Of a DNA stretch of 64,000 nucleotides, positions 23,453 through 37,369 are shown piece after piece. A program made the translations under genes and the position numbers. The stretch is from Candidatus Elarobacter sp. GTDB lineage: Bacteria > Vulcanimicrobiota > Vulcanimicrobiia > Vulcanimicrobiales > Vulcanimicrobiaceae. Location of the stretch: NCBI GenBank assembly GCA_036403315.1, contig DASWRD010000093.1, forward strand, positions 1,514 to 65,513, given 5' to 3'. Position 1 is the stretch's first letter. Each line of letters opens with the position of its first letter. Below the pieces are notes generated by a model. The model worked only from the letters and a program-made list of their open reading frames with translations, was not told the origin of the DNA and searched no databases.

Positions 23453-24460
23453 GTGACCCGTATCGTCCCGCCGCTTCGGATCGGCCCCATCGAGGTCTGG
23501 CCCCCCATCGTGCTCGCGCCGATGTCGGGGGTGACGAACCGCACCCTGCGCGCGCTCTACAAGCCGTTCGGGTTCGGGCTGACCGTGACGGAGTTCGTGT
23601 CGTCGAACGCGCTGCAGTACGGCAACAAGCGCACGATGGAGATGATCGACCAGCACGGCGTCGAGAAGCCGGTCTCCACGCAGCTCTGGGGCAACGACCC
23701 GGCGCTGATGGCGCTCGCCGCCAAGGTCGTGCGCGAGTGCGGCGCCGACATCGTGGACATCAACTTCGGCTGCCCCGCGCCCAAGGTCACCAAGACCGAG
23801 GGCGGCAGCGCGTGCTTGCGCGACGTCGACCGCTGCGAAGCGATCATGCGCGCGGTCGTGGGCGCCGTCGACTGCCCGGTGACGATGAAGATGCGCCTCG
23901 GCTGGACCGAGGACGACCTCGTGTTCGTGGAGGTCGCGAAGCGCGCGCAAGCCGCGGGCGTGCAGGCGCTGACGCTGCACGCGCGCACCGCGAAGCAGTT
24001 CTACAAAGGCAGCGCCGACTGGTCGAAGATCGCGGAGCTCAAGCGCGCCGTGGACATCCCCGTGATCGGCAACGGCGACTTGACCGATCCGCACGAAGCG
24101 CTGCGCCGCATGCGCGACAGCGGCGTAGACGCGGTGATGCTCGGGCGCGCGACGCTGGGCAACCCGTGGCTCGTGTCGCGCCTGCGCGCGCTCATGGAAG
24201 GGCGCGAGCCGCACGCGACGCCCGACGCGCCGGACCGGCTGCGGTTCGCCGTGCACCACTACGAGACGATGGTCGCCGAGTGGGGCGAACCGCGCGCCGT
24301 GCCGCAGATGCGCAAGCACCTCGGCTATTATCTCAAAGGCTTCCCGGGCGCGAGCGCGCTGCGCGAGCGGCTGATGCGCACGGAGACCGCTGCGGAGACG
24401 CTCGCCGTGATCCACGACACGATCGCGCAGCTCGAATCGCGCGAGCTCGCCGTCGCGTGA
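23453..24460 (+). CDS. dusB: tRNA-dihydrouridine synthase
   Basis: LAPMSG, DINFGCP, TMKMRLG, HART, VIGNGD, MLGR..LGNPW. Confidence 0.92.
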   Translation: MTRIVPPLRIGPIEVWPPIVLAPMSGVTNRTLRALYKPFGFGLTVTEFVSSNALQYGNKRTMEMIDQHGVEKPVSTQLWGNDPALMALAAKVVRECGADIVDINFGCPAPKVTKTEGGSACLRDVDRCEAIMRAVVGAVDCPVTMKMRLGWTEDDLVFVEVAKRAQAAGVQALTLHARTAKQFYKGSADWSKIAELKRAVDIPVIGNGDLTDPHEALRRMRDSGVDAVMLGRATLGNPWLVSRLRALMEGREPHATPDAPDRLRFAVHHYETMVAEWGEPRAVPQMRKHLGYYLKGFPGASALRERLMRTETAAETLAVIHDTIAQLESRELAVA

Positions 24461-25779
24461 TCCCCGCAACGCACGACGAGCTGTATGGCGCGGCTTCGCC
24501 CGCGGCCCTGTACGACGAAGTCTACGAGAACTACCGCGCGCACCTGAACCCGCCGCTCGCGCGGGTGATGAAGCTGTCCGGTTCGCCGATCGAGGTGCGC
24601 GCGCAAGGCTGCACGATCACCGACCACACCGGCAAGACGTATCTCGACTTCGCCGGCGGCTACGGCGTGTTCACACTGGGGCACCGCCACCCGCGCGTCG
24701 TCGCGGCGGTGAAAGACCAGCTCGACCGCATGGCGCTGTCGGGGCGCACGATGTTCAACCCGCTGATGGGGCGGCTCGCGAAGCGGCTCGCCGATCTGGC
24801 GCCCGGCGATCTGTCGATCGCGTTCTTCGCCAACAGCGGCACCGAGGCGGTGGAGGGCGCGCTCAAGCTTGCGCGCGCCGCGACGAAGCGCCCGGCCATC
24901 GTCGCGACGGACGGCGCGTTCCACGGCAAGACGCTCGGTGCGCTGTCCGCGAGCGGGCGCGATGCGTTCCGCGAGCCGTTTGCGCCGCTGCTCGCGGACG
25001 TGCGCCGCGTGCCGTTCGGCGACGCGCGCGCGCTGCGAGCCGTCGTCGACGACGCCGTCGCGGCGGTGATCGTCGAGCCGGTGCAGGGCGAGGGCGGCGT
25101 GAACCTGCCGCCGGACGGCTACCTGCGCGACGTGCGCGCGATCTGCGACGCGAGCGGCGCCGTGATGATCGCCGACGAGGTGCAGACGGGGCTCGGGCGC
25201 TGCGGCGCGCTGTTCGCGTGCGACCGCGAGGATGTCGTCCCCGACGTGATCGCGCTCGCGAAAGGCTTGTCCGGCGGCGTGATCCCGATCGGGGCGTACG
25301 TCGCGCGGCCGTCCGTCTGGAACGCGGCGTACGCGAAGCAGCCGCTGCTGCACACGTCCACGTTCGGCGGCAACGAGCTGGCGTGCGCGGCCGCGCTCGC
25401 GGCGCTCGACGTGCTGCACGACGAAGATCTCGTCGCGAACGCGCGCGCGCGCGGCGCGGAGCTTCTCGCCGGTGCGCGCGCGACGATGGCGCGCCACCCT
25501 GCGGTGATCGCGGACGTGCGCGGCGCGGGCCTGCTGGTCGGCGTCGAGCTGCGCAGCGAGGGCTACGGCGGCACGATCATCCCGGAGCTGCTCAAGCGCG
25601 GCGTCACGGCGGCCTGGACGCTCAACCAGCAGCGCGTGATTCGCCTCGAACCGCCGCTGATCGTCACCGCCGAGGAAATCGACGTCGCGCTGCGCGCGTT
25701 CGATGCGGCGGTCGCGGCGGCGTTCGACAGGCTCGGAACGCTGGTCCCGATGTCCGACACGCCCGAAAAGCAGCCGTAG
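24457..25779 (+). CDS. class III PLP aminotransferase
   Basis: YLDFAGGYG, NSGTEAVEGALK, FHGKT, EPVQGEGG, DEVQTGLGR, AKGLSGG, HTSTFGGN. Confidence 0.92.
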   Translation: MIPATHDELYGAASPAALYDEVYENYRAHLNPPLARVMKLSGSPIEVRAQGCTITDHTGKTYLDFAGGYGVFTLGHRHPRVVAAVKDQLDRMALSGRTMFNPLMGRLAKRLADLAPGDLSIAFFANSGTEAVEGALKLARAATKRPAIVATDGAFHGKTLGALSASGRDAFREPFAPLLADVRRVPFGDARALRAVVDDAVAAVIVEPVQGEGGVNLPPDGYLRDVRAICDASGAVMIADEVQTGLGRCGALFACDREDVVPDVIALAKGLSGGVIPIGAYVARPSVWNAAYAKQPLLHTSTFGGNELACAAALAALDVLHDEDLVANARARGAELLAGARATMARHPAVIADVRGAGLLVGVELRSEGYGGTIIPELLKRGVTAAWTLNQQRVIRLEPPLIVTAEEIDVALRAFDAAVAAAFDRLGTLVPMSDTPEKQP

Positions 25780-26246
25780 TGCCGTACGTCGAGTGCACGA
25801 TCGACGTCGCCGCCCCGGCCGCGACGGTGTACGACCTTGCGAAGGAGCAGGAGCGCTTCCCCGACTTCATGCCGGACGTCGAGACGGTCGTCGTGCTGGA
25901 GCGTCATCCCGATCACGTGATCACGCGCTGGAAGACGCTGGTGGAGGACGCGCCGATCGAGTGGACGGAGAACGATCGCTTCGACGACGCGCGCCTGCGC
26001 ATCGATTACGCGCTGATCGAGGGCGACCTCGACACGTTCGAAGGCGCATGGACGTTCGAGCAGCTCGGCGACGTGACGCGCGTGGTGCTCAGCGTCGAGT
26101 ACGACTTCGGCGTGCCGACGCTGGCCGAGCTGATCGGCCCGACGCTGGAGAAAAAAGTGCGCGAGAACTCCGACATGATGCTCGCGGCGCTCAAAGCCGA
26201 GGCGGAATCACGGACGGCCCCGCAGTCGGCGCACGGTATGCGCTGA
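25779..26246 (+). CDS. SRPBCC/START (polyketide cyclase-like) lipid-binding protein
   Basis: E.FPDFMPDV, W.E.D, EGD...FEG.W pattern; start overlaps aminotransferase stop. Confidence 0.85.
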   Translation: MPYVECTIDVAAPAATVYDLAKEQERFPDFMPDVETVVVLERHPDHVITRWKTLVEDAPIEWTENDRFDDARLRIDYALIEGDLDTFEGAWTFEQLGDVTRVVLSVEYDFGVPTLAELIGPTLEKKVRENSDMMLAALKAEAESRTAPQSAHGMR

Positions 26247-27255
26247 ATCGGGCTGCCGTCGATACCGCGCGCGGCGGGATCGCCGCGTGCAGCAGCTCGA
26301 CGGTTCGGAGCAGCTCTTCGGCGTAGCCCGGCTCCTCGAGGCGCGCCGCGTCGAATGCGAGCCCGCGCACGGGGAACGACGCGCGTTCCAGCGCGTCGAG
26401 CAGCACCGGTGCTTTGACCGCGCGGTCTGCGAGCGCGCGCAGGCGCTGCAGCGCGTCTTCCAGCTTCACGACCTCGGTGCGGTATGCGGCGTACTTTGCC
26501 GATTCGGCGGCGGCGCGGTCGCGGATCGTGGGCCAGCGCTCGTCGCGAAAGCGCACGACCTCGGCGTTGCCGCGCTCGGTGAAGCGCCGTTTGCGCGCCG
26601 CGATCAGGCGGTGCTCCTCTTGGTCGGCGAACCGCGGGCCCTTCGCTTTCGCGCGCAGCAGCTCGGCGTGCTCCTGCGCCGTGAAGTCCGTCTCGACGGC
26701 GATGCGGTCGCTGATCGCGGCGAGCTCCTCGCGCCAAATGTCTTCGACCGCGGGCGGCTCGTTGAGCGCGCCGAGCTGGCTGCGCCGCGCCGCCAGCACA
26801 TCGCGCCGCGCGTCGAGCAATCCGCGCAGCCGCGCCACGCCGCCGCGCAGCGTCGCGATCCACGCCGTGTCGGCGGGCGCGCCGGGGTCGTCGAAGCGCA
26901 CGTCGATGCCGAGGCCGAGCGGCTCGATCTCGACGAACCGCCATTGCCCCGGGTCCGCGCCGGGTAGCACGCGCAGGCGGCAGCCGGTGGGCGGCGGGGG
27001 ACCGGTGTGGCGGAACACCGCGAACGCTTCGTTCGTGTCGACGCCGAGCAGCGTCGTGCGCTCGTCGAACACGCGCGCAAACGCGACGATCCCGCCGTAT
27101 GACGTCTCGCCCCACACCGGCTCGTCGACGTCGTCGTAGCGCCGGCTCCACAGCACCGCCCATAGCGCGTCGTGCGCCTCCGCGGCGGCCGCGTGATCGC
27201 GCGTCAGCTTGTCGATGACGGCTCGGACGCTGGAGCGGCGGTACCGGTTCGTCAC
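26191..27255 (-). CDS. hypothetical protein with coiled-coil C-terminal half
   Basis: 354-aa ORF with typical codon usage; convergent overlap with SRPBCC gene. Confidence 0.65.
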   Translation of the reverse strand: MTNRYRRSSVRAVIDKLTRDHAAAAEAHDALWAVLWSRRYDDVDEPVWGETSYGGIVAFARVFDERTTLLGVDTNEAFAVFRHTGPPPPTGCRLRVLPGADPGQWRFVEIEPLGLGIDVRFDDPGAPADTAWIATLRGGVARLRGLLDARRDVLAARRSQLGALNEPPAVEDIWREELAAISDRIAVETDFTAQEHAELLRAKAKGPRFADQEEHRLIAARKRRFTERGNAEVVRFRDERWPTIRDRAAAESAKYAAYRTEVVKLEDALQRLRALADRAVKAPVLLDALERASFPVRGLAFDAARLEEPGYAEELLRTVELLHAAIPPRAVSTAARFSAYRAPTAGPSVIPPRL

Positions 27256-27312
27256 GGTCGCTGCGCTTTCTTCGGACGCGGGCGGTCCCGTTTCACCCGC
27301 GTCCTTCGCTCC

Positions 27313-27981
27313 CTAGTCGGGCTTCGCGAACGCTACGATCGTGTTCTCGCCGCGGCAGTTCGTCCAGAACTTCGTGCCGTCGAAGCCGAGGCTGCGCGCC
27401 GCGAACGGGATCGACGCCAGCTCGTGGACCTCGGGCTCTTCCTTGCGCGCGTCCAAACAGAGCAGCCGGTAGTCGTCGATCTCGCGGCTCTCCGTCGTCA
27501 CGAGGTAGAAGCGCCCCGCGACGACGACCATGCCGGTGATCTGGCGCGGAACGGGGATCGTTCGCAGCACCTTGCCGACGTCGTCGAGTTCGAGGATCAC
27601 TTGCGCGTCGCGCTGGCTCAAGTACAGCCGGTCGCCGTCGTACGCCAGGAACGAACCGGTGCCGCCGGGGCACGGGATCGCGTCGGACTTGAAATCCTTG
27701 CCCATGATGTAGCGTCGTATGAAACGGTCGTCGGTACCGCCGTCTTCGGCGTCGCCGACCACGACGCGCAGCGCGTCGCCGGTGACCGTCAGCCCGAACG
27801 GCCTGCCCGGTGCGGTCGCCTCTTCGAAAACACGGCCCTGCATTGCGACCAAACCGTAGATCCGGCAGGTCTCGTAGGAGCCGATCCAGAGATCCGGCCC
27901 GTCACACGCGAGCCCCATCGGCGAGGGGCAGGGGGCGGGGATCCGGAGGAGCTCATCGATGGTCGAGAGCGTCTGATTCAT
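27313..27981 (-). CDS. beta-propeller protein (glutaminyl-cyclase/YncE-like)
   Basis: Repeated blades GLACDG.DLW, GLTV.GD.L, LAYDGD.LY, LGFDG.KFW. Confidence 0.65.
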   Translation of the reverse strand: MNQTLSTIDELLRIPAPCPSPMGLACDGPDLWIGSYETCRIYGLVAMQGRVFEEATAPGRPFGLTVTGDALRVVVGDAEDGGTDDRFIRRYIMGKDFKSDAIPCPGGTGSFLAYDGDRLYLSQRDAQVILELDDVGKVLRTIPVPRQITGMVVVAGRFYLVTTESREIDDYRLLCLDARKEEPEVHELASIPFAARSLGFDGTKFWTNCRGENTIVAFAKPD

Positions 27982-28048
27982 GCGCCGCTCCCCTTCCCCC
28001 AACGGCCCGCGGGCTCCCGGCGGCGAAGGAGCGAATCGGGGTCCCGGG

Positions 28049-29158
28049 ATGCCCAAGTTCTGCTTCGTGATCCACCCGCTCTCGTTCGAGGATGTCGTGC
28101 GCTACGAGCCCGGCGCCAAGGGCAAGGGCAAGCCCATCATCGCCAAGATCCTCGAGTGGATGCCGGCGTGGAACGCGGCACATGTGACGGGGGTCCGGAC
28201 GCCGGACGGGCGCGAGACCGAGGGCTGGTTCGTCGCCGCCGGTTTGCTGCCGGAGCAGATGCTGGAGCTGCCGCGCGAGCAGGTGTACGACCGCATCCTC
28301 AAAGCGATCCAGCTCGGCGTCGACCTGGGCGCAGAGGTCGCGGGGCTGGGCGCGTTCACCGGCGTCGTCGGCGACGGCGGCGTGACGATCAACGAGCGTT
28401 CGCCGATCCCCGTGACGACCGGCAACTCCCTCACGATCGCCGCCGGCGTGCGCAGCTTGTTCCGCGGCGCGGACGAGATGGGGATCGATGCGTCGCGCGC
28501 GACCGCGGTGGTGGTCGGCGCGACCGGCTCGATCGGGGGCGCCTGCGTGGAGCTGATCGCGCCGCACGTCGCGCACGTGATCCTGGTCGCGCGCAACGAG
28601 ACGCGCTTGCGCAAGTTTCACGAGGGCATTCGCGAGAAGCTGCCGTGCGCGTCGTCGTACACGACCGAGATCGGCGCGGCGGTGCAGCGCGCCGACCTCG
28701 TGCTGACGGCGACGTCGTCGGTGCAGGACGTGATCGAGCCCGAAGACTTGCGCACCGGCGCGGTCGTGTGCGAGCTGTCGCTGCCGCACGACGTCAGCCG
28801 GCGCGTTGCGAGCGAACGGCCCGACGTGCTCGTCGTGGAAGGCGGCAACATGCGCGTGCCCGGCGACATGCGCTGGTGGCGCGTGCGCGAGCCCGGCGAG
28901 ACGTTCGACATGGGACTGCCGCAGGGGACGGCGCTCGCGTGCATGTCGGAGACGATGCTGCTCGCGCTGGAGAACCGCTGCGAACCGTACACGCTGGGCC
29001 GCGGGATCGACGTCGCGAAGGTGCGCGAGATCGACGACCTCGCGGCGCGCGCCGGTTTCCAGCTCGCCGACATGCGCGCGTTCGACCTGCCGATCACGCG
29101 CGAACACATCGCGCGCACCCGCGCCGCGGCGGAAGAACGCCGCGCGGCCTCCGCATGA
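28049..29158 (+). CDS. acyl-ACP/CoA reductase-like NAD(P)-binding protein (COG5322-like)
   Basis: GLGAFT, PVTTGNSLT, VVGATGSIG, ALACMSETMLLALE (putative catalytic Cys), resembling cyanobacterial acyl-ACP reductase. Confidence 0.8.
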   Translation: MPKFCFVIHPLSFEDVVRYEPGAKGKGKPIIAKILEWMPAWNAAHVTGVRTPDGRETEGWFVAAGLLPEQMLELPREQVYDRILKAIQLGVDLGAEVAGLGAFTGVVGDGGVTINERSPIPVTTGNSLTIAAGVRSLFRGADEMGIDASRATAVVVGATGSIGGACVELIAPHVAHVILVARNETRLRKFHEGIREKLPCASSYTTEIGAAVQRADLVLTATSSVQDVIEPEDLRTGAVVCELSLPHDVSRRVASERPDVLVVEGGNMRVPGDMRWWRVREPGETFDMGLPQGTALACMSETMLLALENRCEPYTLGRGIDVAKVREIDDLAARAGFQLADMRAFDLPITREHIARTRAAAEERRAASA

Positions 29159-29634
29159 ACGTTCGCCCGCACCGCTACGCCGCGCACGTGCGCTGGACCG
29201 GTTGCGCATCGGGGCCGGCGCTCGACTACGCGACGTACTCGCGCGAGTACGTCGTGGAGATCGACGGGAAGCCGCCGCTGCGCGGCTCGGCGGACGTGCA
29301 CTTTCGCGGTGACCGGGCACTGCACAATCCGGAGGACTTGCTGGTGGCTGCGCTTTCCGCGTGCCATCTGCTTTCGTACCTCGCGGAATGCTCGCGCGCC
29401 GGGATCGCGGTTGTCGCCTACGAGGATGACGCCGGCGGCGAGATGACGCTGATCGACGGGAAAATCCGCTTTCGCGAGGTGATGCTGCGGCCGCGCGTCG
29501 CGATTGCCGATCCGGCGCGCATCGACGAGGCCGTTGCATTGCACGAGCGCGCGCACGCAGAGTGCTTCATCGCGAACAGCGTGAACTTTCCCGTCCGCCA
29601 CGAAGCGACCGTGACGAGCGCGCAACCGGCGTGA
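29155..29634 (+). CDS. OsmC/Ohr family protein
   Basis: NPEDLLVAALSACH.L, AH..CFIANSV. Confidence 0.92.
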   Translation: MNVRPHRYAAHVRWTGCASGPALDYATYSREYVVEIDGKPPLRGSADVHFRGDRALHNPEDLLVAALSACHLLSYLAECSRAGIAVVAYEDDAGGEMTLIDGKIRFREVMLRPRVAIADPARIDEAVALHERAHAECFIANSVNFPVRHEATVTSAQPA

Positions 29635-29806
29635 GCAGCATGGAAAAGACGCTGCGAGCGCAGAGTCTTGCAACGCGACGCCCACAGCGTGAGAGCTCCC
29701 CATCACTCGACGGACTGACAGCTCCGCCGAACGTCGACAACCTCTCGTTAGGACAGGTATCACCCGGCCAGTTCGCAGCGCAATACCTAACTCTCGAGCT
29801 TGGCCG

Positions 29807-29850
29807 AAAAGAAAAGGCGACGGGCACCGCGTTCGATGAACGCGATGCCC
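29807..29850 (-). terminator. terminator-like stem, repeat unit 1
   Basis: 13-bp stem GGGCATCGCGTTC/GAACGCGGTGCCC (one U.G on minus strand), then GTCGCC and TTTTCTTTT. Confidence 0.6.
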
Positions 29851-29920
29851 GCGACGGTGTAACGAGTGGGCTTGACAACACCATCTTATCACACCGCAAC
29901 CGGCGCCGCAAACGCCGGGC

Positions 29921-29990
29921 TGGAGCGAGCGGGAGTCGAACCCGCACGAGATGGAGGTCAAGCCCATTCGTCGGACCGCCGAATCGCCCC
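29921..29990 (-). ncRNA. 70-nt tRNA/tmRNA-like domain, copy 1
   Basis: GGGGCGA/TCGCTCC acceptor with G3.U70 and discriminator A; mini D-arm TCGG-CGGT-CCGA; arm with CTTGACC loop; T-arm GCGGG-TTCGACT-CCCGC; no encoded CCA. Confidence 0.7.
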
Positions 29991-30038
29991 AGCGCTGTGT
30001 ACATCACGCTGCGTAGTGCAATCGGCAAGGGACCATTT

Positions 30039-30078
30039 GAAAAAGCGACGGGCACCGCGTTCGATGAACGCGATGCCC
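30039..30078 (-). terminator. terminator-like stem, repeat unit 2
   Basis: Same 13-bp stem, followed by GTCGC and TTTTT. Confidence 0.6.
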
Positions 30079-30147
30079 TAGGCGGTATGACAGGAGACCT
30101 TGACGCGATGATCCTACCACACCGCCGCCGGCGTCGCAACGCCGGGC

Positions 30148-30217
30148 TGGAGCGAGCGGGAATCGAACCCGCGCAGGAAGAGTGTCAAAGTCCCCTGTCG
30201 GACCACCGAATTGCCCC
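30148..30217 (-). ncRNA. 70-nt tRNA/tmRNA-like domain, copy 2
   Basis: GGGGCAA/TCGCTCC acceptor (G3.U70, one A.C mismatch); TCGG-TGGT-CCGA; arm with TTTGACA loop; T-arm GCGGG-TTCGATT-CCCGC. Confidence 0.7.
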
Positions 30218-30263
30218 AGCGCTGTGTACATCACCCGTCGATCGCGATTGGAAAGGCCCTGAC

Positions 30264-31175
30264 GTGAAGAAAGTCGTCTCCGTCTCGCTCGGGTCTTCGT
30301 CGCGCGATCATCGTGCCGATGTCGATCTGCTCGGCGAGCGGTTCGAGATATCGCGCGTCGGGACCGACGGCTCCATCGATAAAGCGATCGCGAAGCTCAA
30401 GGAGCTCGACGGTACCGTCGACGCGATCGGGCTCGGCGGGATCGACGTGTATCTGTACGCGGGCAAGGACCGGTATGCGCTGCGTGATGGCTTGCGGCTG
30501 CTCGATGCGGTAAAGATCACGCCCGTCGTCGACGGCAGCGGGCTCAAGAACACGCTGGAGCGCAACGCGATCTCATTCATCCAGACGCAACTCGGCATCG
30601 AGCTGCGCGGGAAGCGCGTGCTGATGGTCAGCGCGCTCGACCGGTTCGGGATGGCGCAGGCGCTGGTGCAGGCCGGCGCGGACGTCGTGTTCGGCGACTT
30701 CATCTTCGCGCTCGACCTCGACCGGCCGGTGCGCGGGCTCGACGAGTTCGAAGAGATGGCGCGCAAGTATCTCCCCGACGCGTGCAAGCTGCCGTTCCAG
30801 TTCTTCTATCCCACCGGCAAGAAACAAGACCGTGCGCCGCAGCCGAAGTATCCCGAGTACTACGACGACGCGGAGATCATCGCGGGCGACTACCACTTCA
30901 TGCGCCAGTTCATGCCCGACCGGCTCGACGGCAAGACGATCCTCACCAACACGGTCACCGCGAACGACGTCGACTTCCTGCGCGCGCGCGGGATCGCGCG
31001 GCTCGTCACGACGACGCCCGATTTCGGCGGGCGTTCGTTCGGCACGAACGTCGTCGAAGCGGCGATGATCGCGCTGCTCGGCAAAAAGTGGGCCGACGTG
31101 ACGGACGAGGATTACGCGCGGCTGCTGCGCGAGCTCGACCTCAAGCCGCGCGTGATCGAGTTCCAGGCCGCATAA
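30264..31175 (+). CDS. conserved protein of the family usually labelled 'quinate 5-dehydrogenase'
   Basis: GTG after GAAAGG; KKVVSVSLGSS.RD, GTDG, GLGGID, VDGSGLKNTLER, DRFGM, GRSFGTNVVEA. Function label is unverified. Confidence 0.75.
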   Translation: MKKVVSVSLGSSSRDHRADVDLLGERFEISRVGTDGSIDKAIAKLKELDGTVDAIGLGGIDVYLYAGKDRYALRDGLRLLDAVKITPVVDGSGLKNTLERNAISFIQTQLGIELRGKRVLMVSALDRFGMAQALVQAGADVVFGDFIFALDLDRPVRGLDEFEEMARKYLPDACKLPFQFFYPTGKKQDRAPQPKYPEYYDDAEIIAGDYHFMRQFMPDRLDGKTILTNTVTANDVDFLRARGIARLVTTTPDFGGRSFGTNVVEAAMIALLGKKWADVTDEDYARLLRELDLKPRVIEFQAA

Positions 31176-36039: not shown

Positions 36040-36806
36040 CCGGGCTCGGCATCGCGACCGACGCGCTCGTGAACGACGGCATCGTTCGCCGCGCGCGCGA
36101 CCGCGACCGGGTCGTGATCGAGACGCCGTCGCGGCGCGACTTCTGGTTCGGGCACGGCTTCGTGCTCGACGCGCCGCCGGACGCCGCGCGCGTCGCGGCG
36201 CTGGTCGAGGAGGGGCGCGCGCGCTTCGGCGCGCTCGGTGCGGCGCGTTTCGTCGTGCAGTGGGAACGCGCGCACGGCGCTCCCCATGTCGCCGTCGACG
36301 TGCCCGACGGCAGCGTGCGCGAACGCAGCCTGGTGATGGTCTACGACGGGCCCGTGCCGCAACCCGACCGTCGCGTCGTCGATCACGGCACCGAATACTG
36401 GGACGACGCGGCCGCGCTCGCATCCGAGGAGTATCCGGAGTTCGGCGACTTCACGCGCTGGCGCTTCGACTGCGTTCGGCGCGACGTTCGCCGCGGTCGC
36501 GCGCGCGTCGTCGGCATCCGCGAAGACGGGCGGCTCCTCAACACGGTGGGGCTGTACCGCGGCGACGGGATCGCGCGCTTCATGACGCCCGTGACGCGGC
36601 CGGGCGAGCGCGGCCGTGGGCTTTTCGGCGCGTGCGCGCGCACGCTGATCGCGTGGGCGAACGCGGACGCGCCGCGCCGCGTCGCGATCGCGGCCGATCC
36701 GGACGACGGTCCGGTGGAGCTGTACCGCCGGGTGGGATTCGTACCGGCGTCGTACGTCGATGCCGTCATCGTCGCGGTGGCACCGCCCGCGGGCGGCGCG
36801 GTATGA
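36036..36806 (+). CDS. GNAT family acetyltransferase
   Basis: C-terminal VTRPGERGRGL and LYRRVGF motifs. Confidence 0.75.
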   Translation: MTGLGIATDALVNDGIVRRARDRDRVVIETPSRRDFWFGHGFVLDAPPDAARVAALVEEGRARFGALGAARFVVQWERAHGAPHVAVDVPDGSVRERSLVMVYDGPVPQPDRRVVDHGTEYWDDAAALASEEYPEFGDFTRWRFDCVRRDVRRGRARVVGIREDGRLLNTVGLYRGDGIARFMTPVTRPGERGRGLFGACARTLIAWANADAPRRVAIAADPDDGPVELYRRVGFVPASYVDAVIVAVAPPAGGAV

Positions 36807-36826
36807 TTCGTTAGGAGGTTGCCGAG

Positions 36827-37369
36827 ATGACGCCGTTCGTGCGCGAGCCGCTGCCGATACCGTCGGACGAGACGGTGCGCTGGACCGGTGCGCCGCCCAC
36901 CGGCCTGCTGTGGCGGACGACCGATTTGGCGCTGGTGCCGTTCTCGCTGATGTGGGGCGGTTTCGCGCTGTTCTGGGAAAGCATGGTGATCAGCGCCGAC
37001 GCGCCGTTGGTGATGAAGCTGTTCGGCGTGCCGTTCGTCGGCGTGGGACTCTACCTGATCGCCGGCCGCTTCTGGTGGGACGCGAACGTGCGCGCACGCA
37101 CGCGCTACGCCGTCACCGAACGCGCCGCGTACGTCGTCGTGTCCGGTTTCGCCGGCTCCGTGCGCCGCTACGCCGGCTCCGCGCTCGGCGAGGTTCGCCT
37201 CGAACGCAAGGACGACGGCTCCGGGACGCTGCGCTTCGGTCCCGATTCGAGGTCCGCACGCGGCCAATGGTACAGCTCGCGAACCGCGTTCGCGTCGCAG
37301 AACGCGTTCGAGGCGATCCACGACGTCGACCAGGCCTACGACGCCGTGCGCGCCGCGAGCCGTGGCTGA
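36827..37369 (+). CDS. membrane protein with bacterial PH-like domain
   Basis: AGGAGG RBS; E.VRW.G.P, two TM helices, YAVT.R. Confidence 0.7.
   Translation: MTPFVREPLPIPSDETVRWTGAPPTGLLWRTTDLALVPFSLMWGGFALFWESMVISADAPLVMKLFGVPFVGVGLYLIAGRFWWDANVRARTRYAVTERAAYVVVSGFAGSVRRYAGSALGEVRLERKDDGSGTLRFGPDSRSARGQWYSSRTAFASQNAFEAIHDVDQAYDAVRAASRG

Follow-up and report, generated by a model that had tools for sequence, protein, structure and literature searches.

Two tandem units and their arm-antisense pairing

The window analyzed here is a stretch of 64,000 nucleotides (nt) from Candidatus Elarobacter sp. (contig DASWRD010000093.1, positions 1,514 to 65,513), and all coordinates are counted from its first letter. 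On its minus strand lie two tandem units, 227-228 nt apart and about 80% identical, in each of which a transfer RNA (tRNA)-like gene is followed by a predicted antisense RNA complementary to the anticodon arm of that same tRNA. In unit 2, a two-block promoter-like motif common to competence genes (30230..30255; -35-like block 30250-30255, -10-like block 30230-30236) precedes a 70-nt tRNA-like gene (30148..30217), with the triplet GAC (30184-30186) in a long anticodon arm; the RNA has G1-C72, G2-C71, G3.U70, and A73, a D stem of 3 base pairs (bp), and a canonical T arm, with CCA not encoded. A sigma70-type promoter (30111..30139; -35 box 30134-30139, 17-nt spacer, extended -10 box 30111-30119) then leads into a predicted antisense small RNA (sRNA) of ~65 nt (30039..30104), which ends in a 13-bp terminator (30050-30078) and a U run and whose 5' end pairs with loop and arm (30089-30104) and then with the D arm.

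Unit 1 has the same parts. Its promoter-like motif of the competence-gene type (30003..30029; -35-like block 30024-30029, -10-like block 30003-30009) is a perfect consensus match, and its 70-nt tRNA-like gene (29921..29990), with G3.U70 and A73, has a 3-nt leader (29991-29993) that pairs with A73 and the trailer. The triplet is GAC (29957-29959) by homology and UGA if centered in the predicted 7-nt loop; ARAGORN calls the gene tRNA-Ser(tga). The sigma70-type antisense promoter (29883..29911; -35 box 29906-29911, extended -10 box 29883-29891) precedes a predicted sRNA of ~70 nt (29807..29876), composed of the arm complement at 29861-29876 plus a D-arm complement and closed by a 15-bp terminator (29820-29852) and a U run.

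The initial annotation of this locus had described four complementary 16-mers, and they are present as it placed them. The arm of unit 1 pairs at 15/16 positions, including one G.U that it had left unmentioned, and that of unit 2 at 16/16, two of them G.U; the two arms disagree at 7/16 positions, with both sides changed in five pairs, one of them to G.U. Its placement of two short motifs in opposing loops was partly borne out: TTGAC does fall within the anticodon loop, GTCAA is in a hairpin loop in unit 1 only, and TTGAC, which it took to be invariant, is not so in the wider family. Predicted binding energies were -22.7 and -23.0 kcal/mol for the cognate pairs versus -11.9 and -8.1 kcal/mol for the crossed pairs, i.e., exchanging arm and antisense between the window units breaks the pairing, which in each unit continues for another 6-7 bp onto the D arm.

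Pairing between arm and antisense is beyond chance and general across the family. Our main set comprised 164 tRNA-like copies (107 plus 57, identical sequences removed), all from one class of Vulcanimicrobiota (Eremiobacterota); two of these copies (L006 and L033), one copy of the third element described below, and one site-census locus (L281) come from an unpublished genome (G033). When each of 106 units, with the degenerate match L040 left out, was ranked against all 106 antisenses, its own came first in 88 and among the top three in 96, the mean cognate score being 38.1 versus 18.9 ± 4.0. Across 159 units, 87% of cells at the 7 non-anchor stem positions pair, compared with 51% when partners were shuffled and 68% when they were shuffled within 33 classes of equal triplet and arm length (maximum, 73% in 1000 shuffles); the covariation first noted between two copies is thus found in the larger set as well. 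The expected conserved scaffold with a variable lock and key is also evident, mean pairwise identity being 0.84 for the acceptor 5' strand and 0.89 for the T arm versus 0.39 for the arm, with 158 different arms among the 164 copies. Because the antisense helix spans the whole triplet in 102/106 units, the proposal that pairing begins at the loop, as a kissing contact, gains support. The alternative of a guide RNA with outside targets does not: the best host-genome matches to the 16-mers were 13-15/16, equal to those of shuffled sequences. The host tRNA-Val(GAC) is predicted to bind the antisense RNAs at -2.4 kcal/mol or weaker.

The antisense appears to be a gene of its own. The combination of TTG, a spacer of 16-18 nt, TG, and TAnnnT precedes it in 82/106 units versus 19/2000 random windows, its helix begins 4-7 nt past the -10 box in 88/106 units, and a long hairpin follows it in 96/106; in a set of divergent sites the boxes are near TTGCAA and TATAAT. 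A simple promoter scan of the window returned zero sites, the unit 2 antisense promoter scoring under its threshold, and the second promoter was accepted because it is conserved across the family. A helix between the second-promoter region and the antisense tail showed no clear covariation. Altogether, this anatomy suggests a separate small RNA gene with a predicted sigma70-type promoter.

A mainly cis-acting control, in which the arm pairs with the tail of its own transcript and the tRNA is freed only by processing, with no attenuation, comes close to the switch of the initial annotation and would be in keeping with two observations: no U-tract terminator was found between tRNA and antisense, and in both units the lowest-energy fold predicted for the read-through transcript contains the cis duplex (in unit 1, -106.9 versus -92.6 kcal/mol). 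Against this account stand the conserved second promoter, positioned at the right distance, and orphan antisenses that have their own promoters and match a neighbor whose own tail mismatches. Of seven units with a weak match, three have a noncognate antisense of their own and, no more than 200 nt away, an orphan antisense gene that matches (L017, L025, and L046, the last on contig C110 of the window's genome); the other four have lesions in the tRNA core. Control mainly in cis is accordingly quite improbable in our estimate, and cis pairing may instead be a second safety layer. One candidate orphan antisense, on L006, was dropped as false. Nor does the initially suggested attenuator hold: antisense and terminator do not overlap, the terminator forms in both predicted states, and where a following gene was called (98 cases) it is convergent in 88 and co-oriented in 10, a further 9 cases having none.

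Alanine identity and the competence motif

The tRNA-like RNA has an acceptor stem of 7 bp and a canonical T arm of 5 bp in nearly all of the 107 copies. Its D stem has 3 bp and a GG loop, its anticodon arm has 8-9 bp, usually with one bulge, and its variable region has 0-2 nt; the D-loop GG and the T loop are conserved. The acceptor end carries G1-C72 in 105/107, G2-C71 in 104/107, G3.U70 in 105/107, and A73 in 106/107 copies, figures to be read with the fact that two search patterns favored or forced U70 and the parser forced C71-C72, which counts against them as evidence; copies derived from BLAST show equal acceptor conservation. In the wider set, G3.U70 is present in 162/164 and A73 in 163/164, and acceptor pairs 4-7 vary with compensatory changes. 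G3:U70 is the main determinant for alanyl-tRNA synthetase (AlaRS) (PMC5389517; 10.1101/2022.11.23.517754).

The triplets, read with a pattern that was picked after inspecting the data, are GAU (72), GAC (47), GAG (28), GUC (7), and CAG, GAA, and CAC (2 each), with GUA, GCG, GCC, and AAC once each among the 164 copies; the divergent set adds CUC and ACC. An alanine triplet was found in none of the 164 copies nor in the divergent set. The nine triplets seen in the first set correspond to codons that rank 3-17 by usage in the host. The triplet is followed by A in 146/164 copies and preceded by a pyrimidine in 163/164, with U33 in 116/164 and a purine at position 37 in 148/164. A comparison of the extended anticodon with host loops gave a mean of 2.2/4 flanking matches, had no control, and was not used.

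Base pairing of the 3-nt leader with A73 plus the trailer, seen in 105/107 copies and with compensatory forms, gives a 10-bp precursor helix. CCA is encoded in 0/107, and two host tRNAs that were inspected likewise lack an encoded CCA. Against Rfam, the window RNA gave no match at the gathering score and showed only sub-threshold likeness to tRNA-Sec and YrlA. The idea of a fragment of transfer-messenger RNA (tmRNA) was rejected, a full tmRNA being present elsewhere in the host (G000:C132 2402-2764); that tmRNA, whose T loop is unusual, escaped ARAGORN and was detected with Rfam. The host also has a 21-tRNA array (G000:C14 35179-37373) that includes an odd tRNA-Ala and is probably a mobile tRNA array.

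A two-block motif stands at a fixed distance upstream of the tRNA in 98/107 copies. A matrix trained solely on these upstream regions scored 22.8 before dprA, 18.2 before comEA, 15.7 before comM, and 15.3 before both comF and comEC, in each case with the motif 8-10 nt before the start codon; comEA, comEC, comF, and comM had been located independently of the motif, comF below its family cut-off. These five genes make up 5/9 of the genome matches that score >=15.3 with a start at 8-12 nt, and of the other four, the three scanned precede a lytic transglycosylase, a DUF3465 protein, and a gene without a Pfam match. Before dprA the motif scores >=15 in 18/30 family genomes (16/28 without the unpublished G208 and G211, which give two of the matches) and >=12 in 22/30, the tally including the unpublished G202 and G206; among random windows, 0.5% reach 15 and 1.5% reach 12. 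In the host (G000), the start codons of dprA, comEA, comEC, and comF lie 8 nt past the motif, a distance that suggests leaderless or nearly leaderless mRNAs in the competence regulon. Genes other than these five lie behind the motif (G000:C19 5205-5900, C124 38788-39252, C37 1263-1562, C29 5789-6619, C59 42779-43330, C79 527-1147, and C31 18998-19606); they include a lytic transglycosylase, a 155-amino-acid (aa) protein of no assigned function, a DUF3465 protein, a protein similar to a PLD-like neighbor, and Uma2-family nucleases, and by their upstream sequence they are candidate new competence genes.

A candidate for recognizing the motif is SigH, which the host encodes and which scores above the NCBIfam cut-off (12/18 sigma-domain matches scanned). 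This sporulation-type SigH (G000:C33, about 36272-36856; L171) is highly conserved, being present in 41/41 class genomes, a tally that includes the unpublished G048 and G059. In Lactobacillus sakei, SigH induces dprA and com genes (PMC3364868). That SigH reads the motif here is a guess, and we name it as a candidate factor only.

Distribution, decay, and a poison-antidote reading

The window's genome holds a third unit, on contig C110. BLAST matches occur in 34/61 relatives; scanning representative genomes with a pattern yielded 33 loci, of which 31 are labeled Vulcanimicrobiota, Eremiobacterota, WPS-2, or subordinate taxa, and the two labeled as other phyla (L080 and L091) are not counted as evidence for a wider range. 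A covariance model was positive in 38/151 genomes of the phylum, including 33/71 of the window's family and 4/9 of one other family, and in none of 19 other families searched. A pattern search of metagenomes gave 63 loci; 51/53 units in this set have a matched antisense, and one of the unmatched units pairs via wobbles when read by eye. Among 16 further, divergent sites, 14 appear intact, and the antisense downstream is strong at 13 of them and weaker at the remaining one; one site is decayed, and one is armless with its antisense kept. The family is patchy and multi-copy, at dozens of unrelated housekeeping sites. Flanking proteins are ordinary (metabolic, signaling, or without assigned function), and among the 65 scanned (of 79 cluster representatives) there was no integrase or phage domain. 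No family copy was found among the phages or plasmids searched; on viral contigs the first pattern gave 0 matches and the second 2, neither a family member. A palindromic repeat family occupies equivalent intergenic sites (L304, L305, L104, and L120), once inside a destroyed unit.

The pattern of loss is one-sided. At the window's site, a census by eye of 40 genus loci found 26 with tRNA and antisense, some of them decayed and one truncated at a contig end, 5 that retain just the antisense, 2 with other remnants, 1 with both parts broken, 4 empty, and 2 without data; an intact tRNA alone was seen at none of the 40. Antisense outlasting tRNA is what one would predict if it is the tRNA that does harm. 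In a post hoc comparison, core lesions affected 4/4 uncovered first-set copies versus 16/102 covered ones (Fisher p=0.001), a difference that is not significant under a looser definition of lesion (p=0.10) and to that extent tells against the decay argument. Arrays of 3-4 units with different keys occur at L104, L105, L238, and L340, and the outer copies at L104 show tRNA decay.

These findings bear on the analogy drawn in the initial annotation with the P4 CI RNA, considered here together with P1 C4, under which the tRNA-like RNA would itself be the antisense actor on termination or translation of a downstream gene. C4 has likewise been described as a cloverleaf RNA whose specificity region varies and whose target lies nearby (PMC5320573). 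However, convergent neighbors leave no co-oriented downstream gene in 88/98 cases, Rfam gave no match (its C4 models neither at the gathering score nor at E<=5), and neither copies among the phages, plasmids, and viral contigs searched nor phage domains among the flanking proteins scanned were found; moreover, strict alanine identity would be left unexplained, and decay strikes the tRNA, not the target. The analogy is thus largely refuted, and we hold it to be extremely unlikely.

A third, longer sRNA-like element (29640..29783, minus strand) has a promoter-like start, two loop-complementary seeds, and a terminator related to the family type. The seeds complement different loop classes, an enrichment that is weak (reached by 6-27/300 shuffles). 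It recurs at the equivalent site in L001-L004 and L006, with similar long RNAs in L022, L288, and L291, and is possibly a degenerate broad-spectrum antidote or immunity RNA. Outside the module, the convergent neighbor is osmC-like (29155..29634, plus strand; Pfam OsmC detected on a homolog), and the divergent neighbor is a conserved 303-aa gene without a Pfam match (30264..31175, plus strand), which anchored the site census. Both belong to a conserved cluster (23737-31175, plus strand) of a class III aminotransferase, cyclase/dehydrase-like, and reductase-like genes, osmC, and the 303-aa gene. A plus-strand open frame of 537 codons over both units (29562-31175) was discarded, being not conserved and open in 3/12 loci.

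The sequences display a two-gene anatomy, co-varying pairing, alanine identity elements, and non-alanine triplets, as well as a motif common to dprA, comEA, comEC, comF, and comM, orphan antisenses, and one-sided decay; the second promoter, the alanine identity, and the competence-gene motif go beyond the initial annotation. On this basis we lean, with some reserve, toward the view that each unit is an RNA-only toxin-antitoxin pair, in which a competence-induced, alanine-mischarging tRNA is held in check by a constitutive antisense antitoxin and which resists curing by transformation. The competence factor, with SigH as candidate, would transcribe the tRNA, likely only during competence; maturation by RNase P, 3' trimming, and CCA addition would be followed by charging by AlaRS. 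The antisense would open the tRNA from the loop and block its maturation or decoding, perhaps with cleavage by RNase III, an enzyme present in the host. Should incoming DNA swap the site for an empty or differently keyed allele, the antidote would decay while the stable tRNA persists and puts alanine at Val, Ile, Leu, or Asp codons, so that the transformant would die or stall. A chromosomal cassette without an integrase would be lost mainly via allelic replacement in transformation, a process that purges mobile elements (PMC11472951); it would enter by homologous recombination and leave with difficulty, and new keys would be favored. Such a model would account for the competence motif, the private keys, the tandem arrays, the orphan antidotes, and the scattered housekeeping sites. 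There is precedent for harm from other tRNAs: mistranslating allo-tRNAs kill E. coli, those with G3:U70 inserting alanine (PMC5389517), and 36/60 anticodon variants of tRNA-Ala slow the growth of yeast (10.1101/2022.11.23.517754). The fuller picture of a selfish, protein-free gene drive of ~200 bases, in which a code-corrupting tRNA plugged into the competence program enters by natural transformation, kills losers and key-swappers, and fuels an arms race of locks, keys, and leftover immunity RNAs, is more tentative and falls somewhat short of an even chance.

The presence of a motif shared with core competence genes, and long persistence at one site in the genus, would also fit a brake that serves the host, tRNA in excess of an antisense threshold slowing growth or ending competence. 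A host function sits poorly with the many near-complete relatives in which the family was not found (38/151 genomes positive), with empty alleles at the same site, and with repeated deletion of the tRNA while the antisense is retained; a timer would not need 158 different arms in 164 copies. We consider such a brake distinctly unlikely.

Several points weigh against decoding as the toxic act, or against the module working as proposed. Expression, charging, decoding, and toxicity of the tRNA are predictions only, and in RNA libraries X1 and X2 the family appeared only on low-depth contigs of small share that are indistinguishable from DNA. At position 750 of L210, an intact-looking tRNA has no cognate antisense within its 1-kb locus. 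The motif differs from the Bacillus subtilis SigH consensus. Each window tRNA has a small defect, C37 in unit 1 and an A6.C67 mismatch in unit 2, and C occupies position 33 in 47/164 copies. The fold departs from the canonical form in its 3-bp D stem, its anticodon stem of 8-9 bp, and its 7- or 9-nt loops, and pairing of leader with trailer may hinder normal processing. The center of the predicted loop is UGA or CGA in 30/46 copies of the first loci, mostly from the window's genus, and of the GAN type elsewhere; because loops of the window's genus so often center on a serine triplet rather than on GAN, the decoded codon is uncertain, and copies in the window could therefore read Val or Ser codons or shift the frame.

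Several of these features are equally those of a poison that does not mistranslate, i.e., an uncharged or unprocessed mimic that occupies AlaRS, EF-Tu, or the ribosome, or else a tRNA whose enlarged loop causes frameshifting. Noncanonical arms, 9-nt loops in 50/107 copies, the register shift in the window's genus, and the 10-bp precursor helix in 105/107 are consistent with it; some inactive allo-tRNAs are toxic without decoding (PMC5389517), and all the antidote and decay evidence fits it equally. A decoy, however, has no need of triplets that vary among real anticodons for common codons, with U or C before and A after, and never for alanine, and we judge this version unlikely. Poison-antidote logic as such, with either kind of poison, seems to us quite probable from the sequences.

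Relation to known systems

The literature searched, in which subscription journals were thinly covered, showed neither a tRNA controlled by an antisense RNA of its own nor a family of this kind in the phylum; the two-RNA module is real, widespread, and apparently undescribed. If the proposed mechanism is true, the family would provide a toxin-antitoxin system with a tRNA as the toxin, a natural example of a tRNA silenced by an antisense RNA dedicated to it, and a function for the mistranslating tRNAs found in nature, a matter that the paper on allo-tRNAs left open (PMC5389517). It would also link addiction modules to the purging of selfish DNA by transformation (PMC11472951), the toxin being made exactly when the cassette is curable. 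About 160 natural lock-and-key pairs make the specificity directly testable, and a by-product is the definition of a promoter motif and a regulon for competence in a soil phylum that is mostly uncultured.

Among natural tRNAs, allo-tRNAs are the nearest in kind: bacterial, with a mismatch between identity and anticodon, some with G3:U70 and inserting alanine, toxic in E. coli, and noted near toxin-antitoxin genes (PMC5389517). They differ in having 8/4 or 9/3 branches, a long variable arm, and a long D stem with a tetraloop (PMC5389517), unlike the 7/5 branch, near-absent variable arm, and 3-bp D stem of this family. The main text of that paper uses neither "antisense" nor "competence" (0 occurrences of each), and the family's 3' acceptor string is absent from its supplementary table. 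The Streptomyces tRNA-ProX is likewise a natural mistranslating tRNA with dual identity and an unusual position 33, and differs by its proline identity and a dedicated synthetase, ProRSx (PMC11415595); "antisense" occurs 0 times in the review text consulted.

The tRNA-like domain of tmRNA shares the alanine-type acceptor stem and T arm, and differs from this family, which has a D stem, a closed anticodon arm, and no reading frame. The P4 CI RNA is tRNA-like, processed by RNase P, and of variable specificity, with a nearby target. These same traits are described for the P1/P7 C4 RNA (PMC5320573). Both regulate downstream phage genes and, as far as the C4 source goes, no alanine identity is described for them, unlike in this family.

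Features of the antisense itself recall toxin-antitoxin systems. In hok/Sok, of type I, a short antisense RNA has a free 5' end and a terminator, and tandem paralogs have private specificity. The units described here resemble it in their short antisense with a terminator, a possible fold-back of the toxin transcript, and tandem private keys; unlike in type I, there is no toxic peptide, the opposite-strand frame being closed in 9/12 loci and no conserved open reading frame being present. With type VIII systems the family would share two traits, namely that both parts are predicted to be noncoding RNAs, given their promoter-terminator anatomy and lack of a conserved reading frame, and that the antitoxin pairs with the toxin RNA, as indicated here by predicted pairing and covariation. 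SdsR and RyeA are base-pairing RNAs that overlap on opposite strands. In CreTA, CreT also acts on translation, but it is a mini-mRNA sequestering a host tRNA, and its repression by CreA works through Cas proteins (PMC8501985). Unlike in either system, here a tRNA would play the part of the toxin, and the antidote has a gene of its own that is read in the same direction and is privately keyed.
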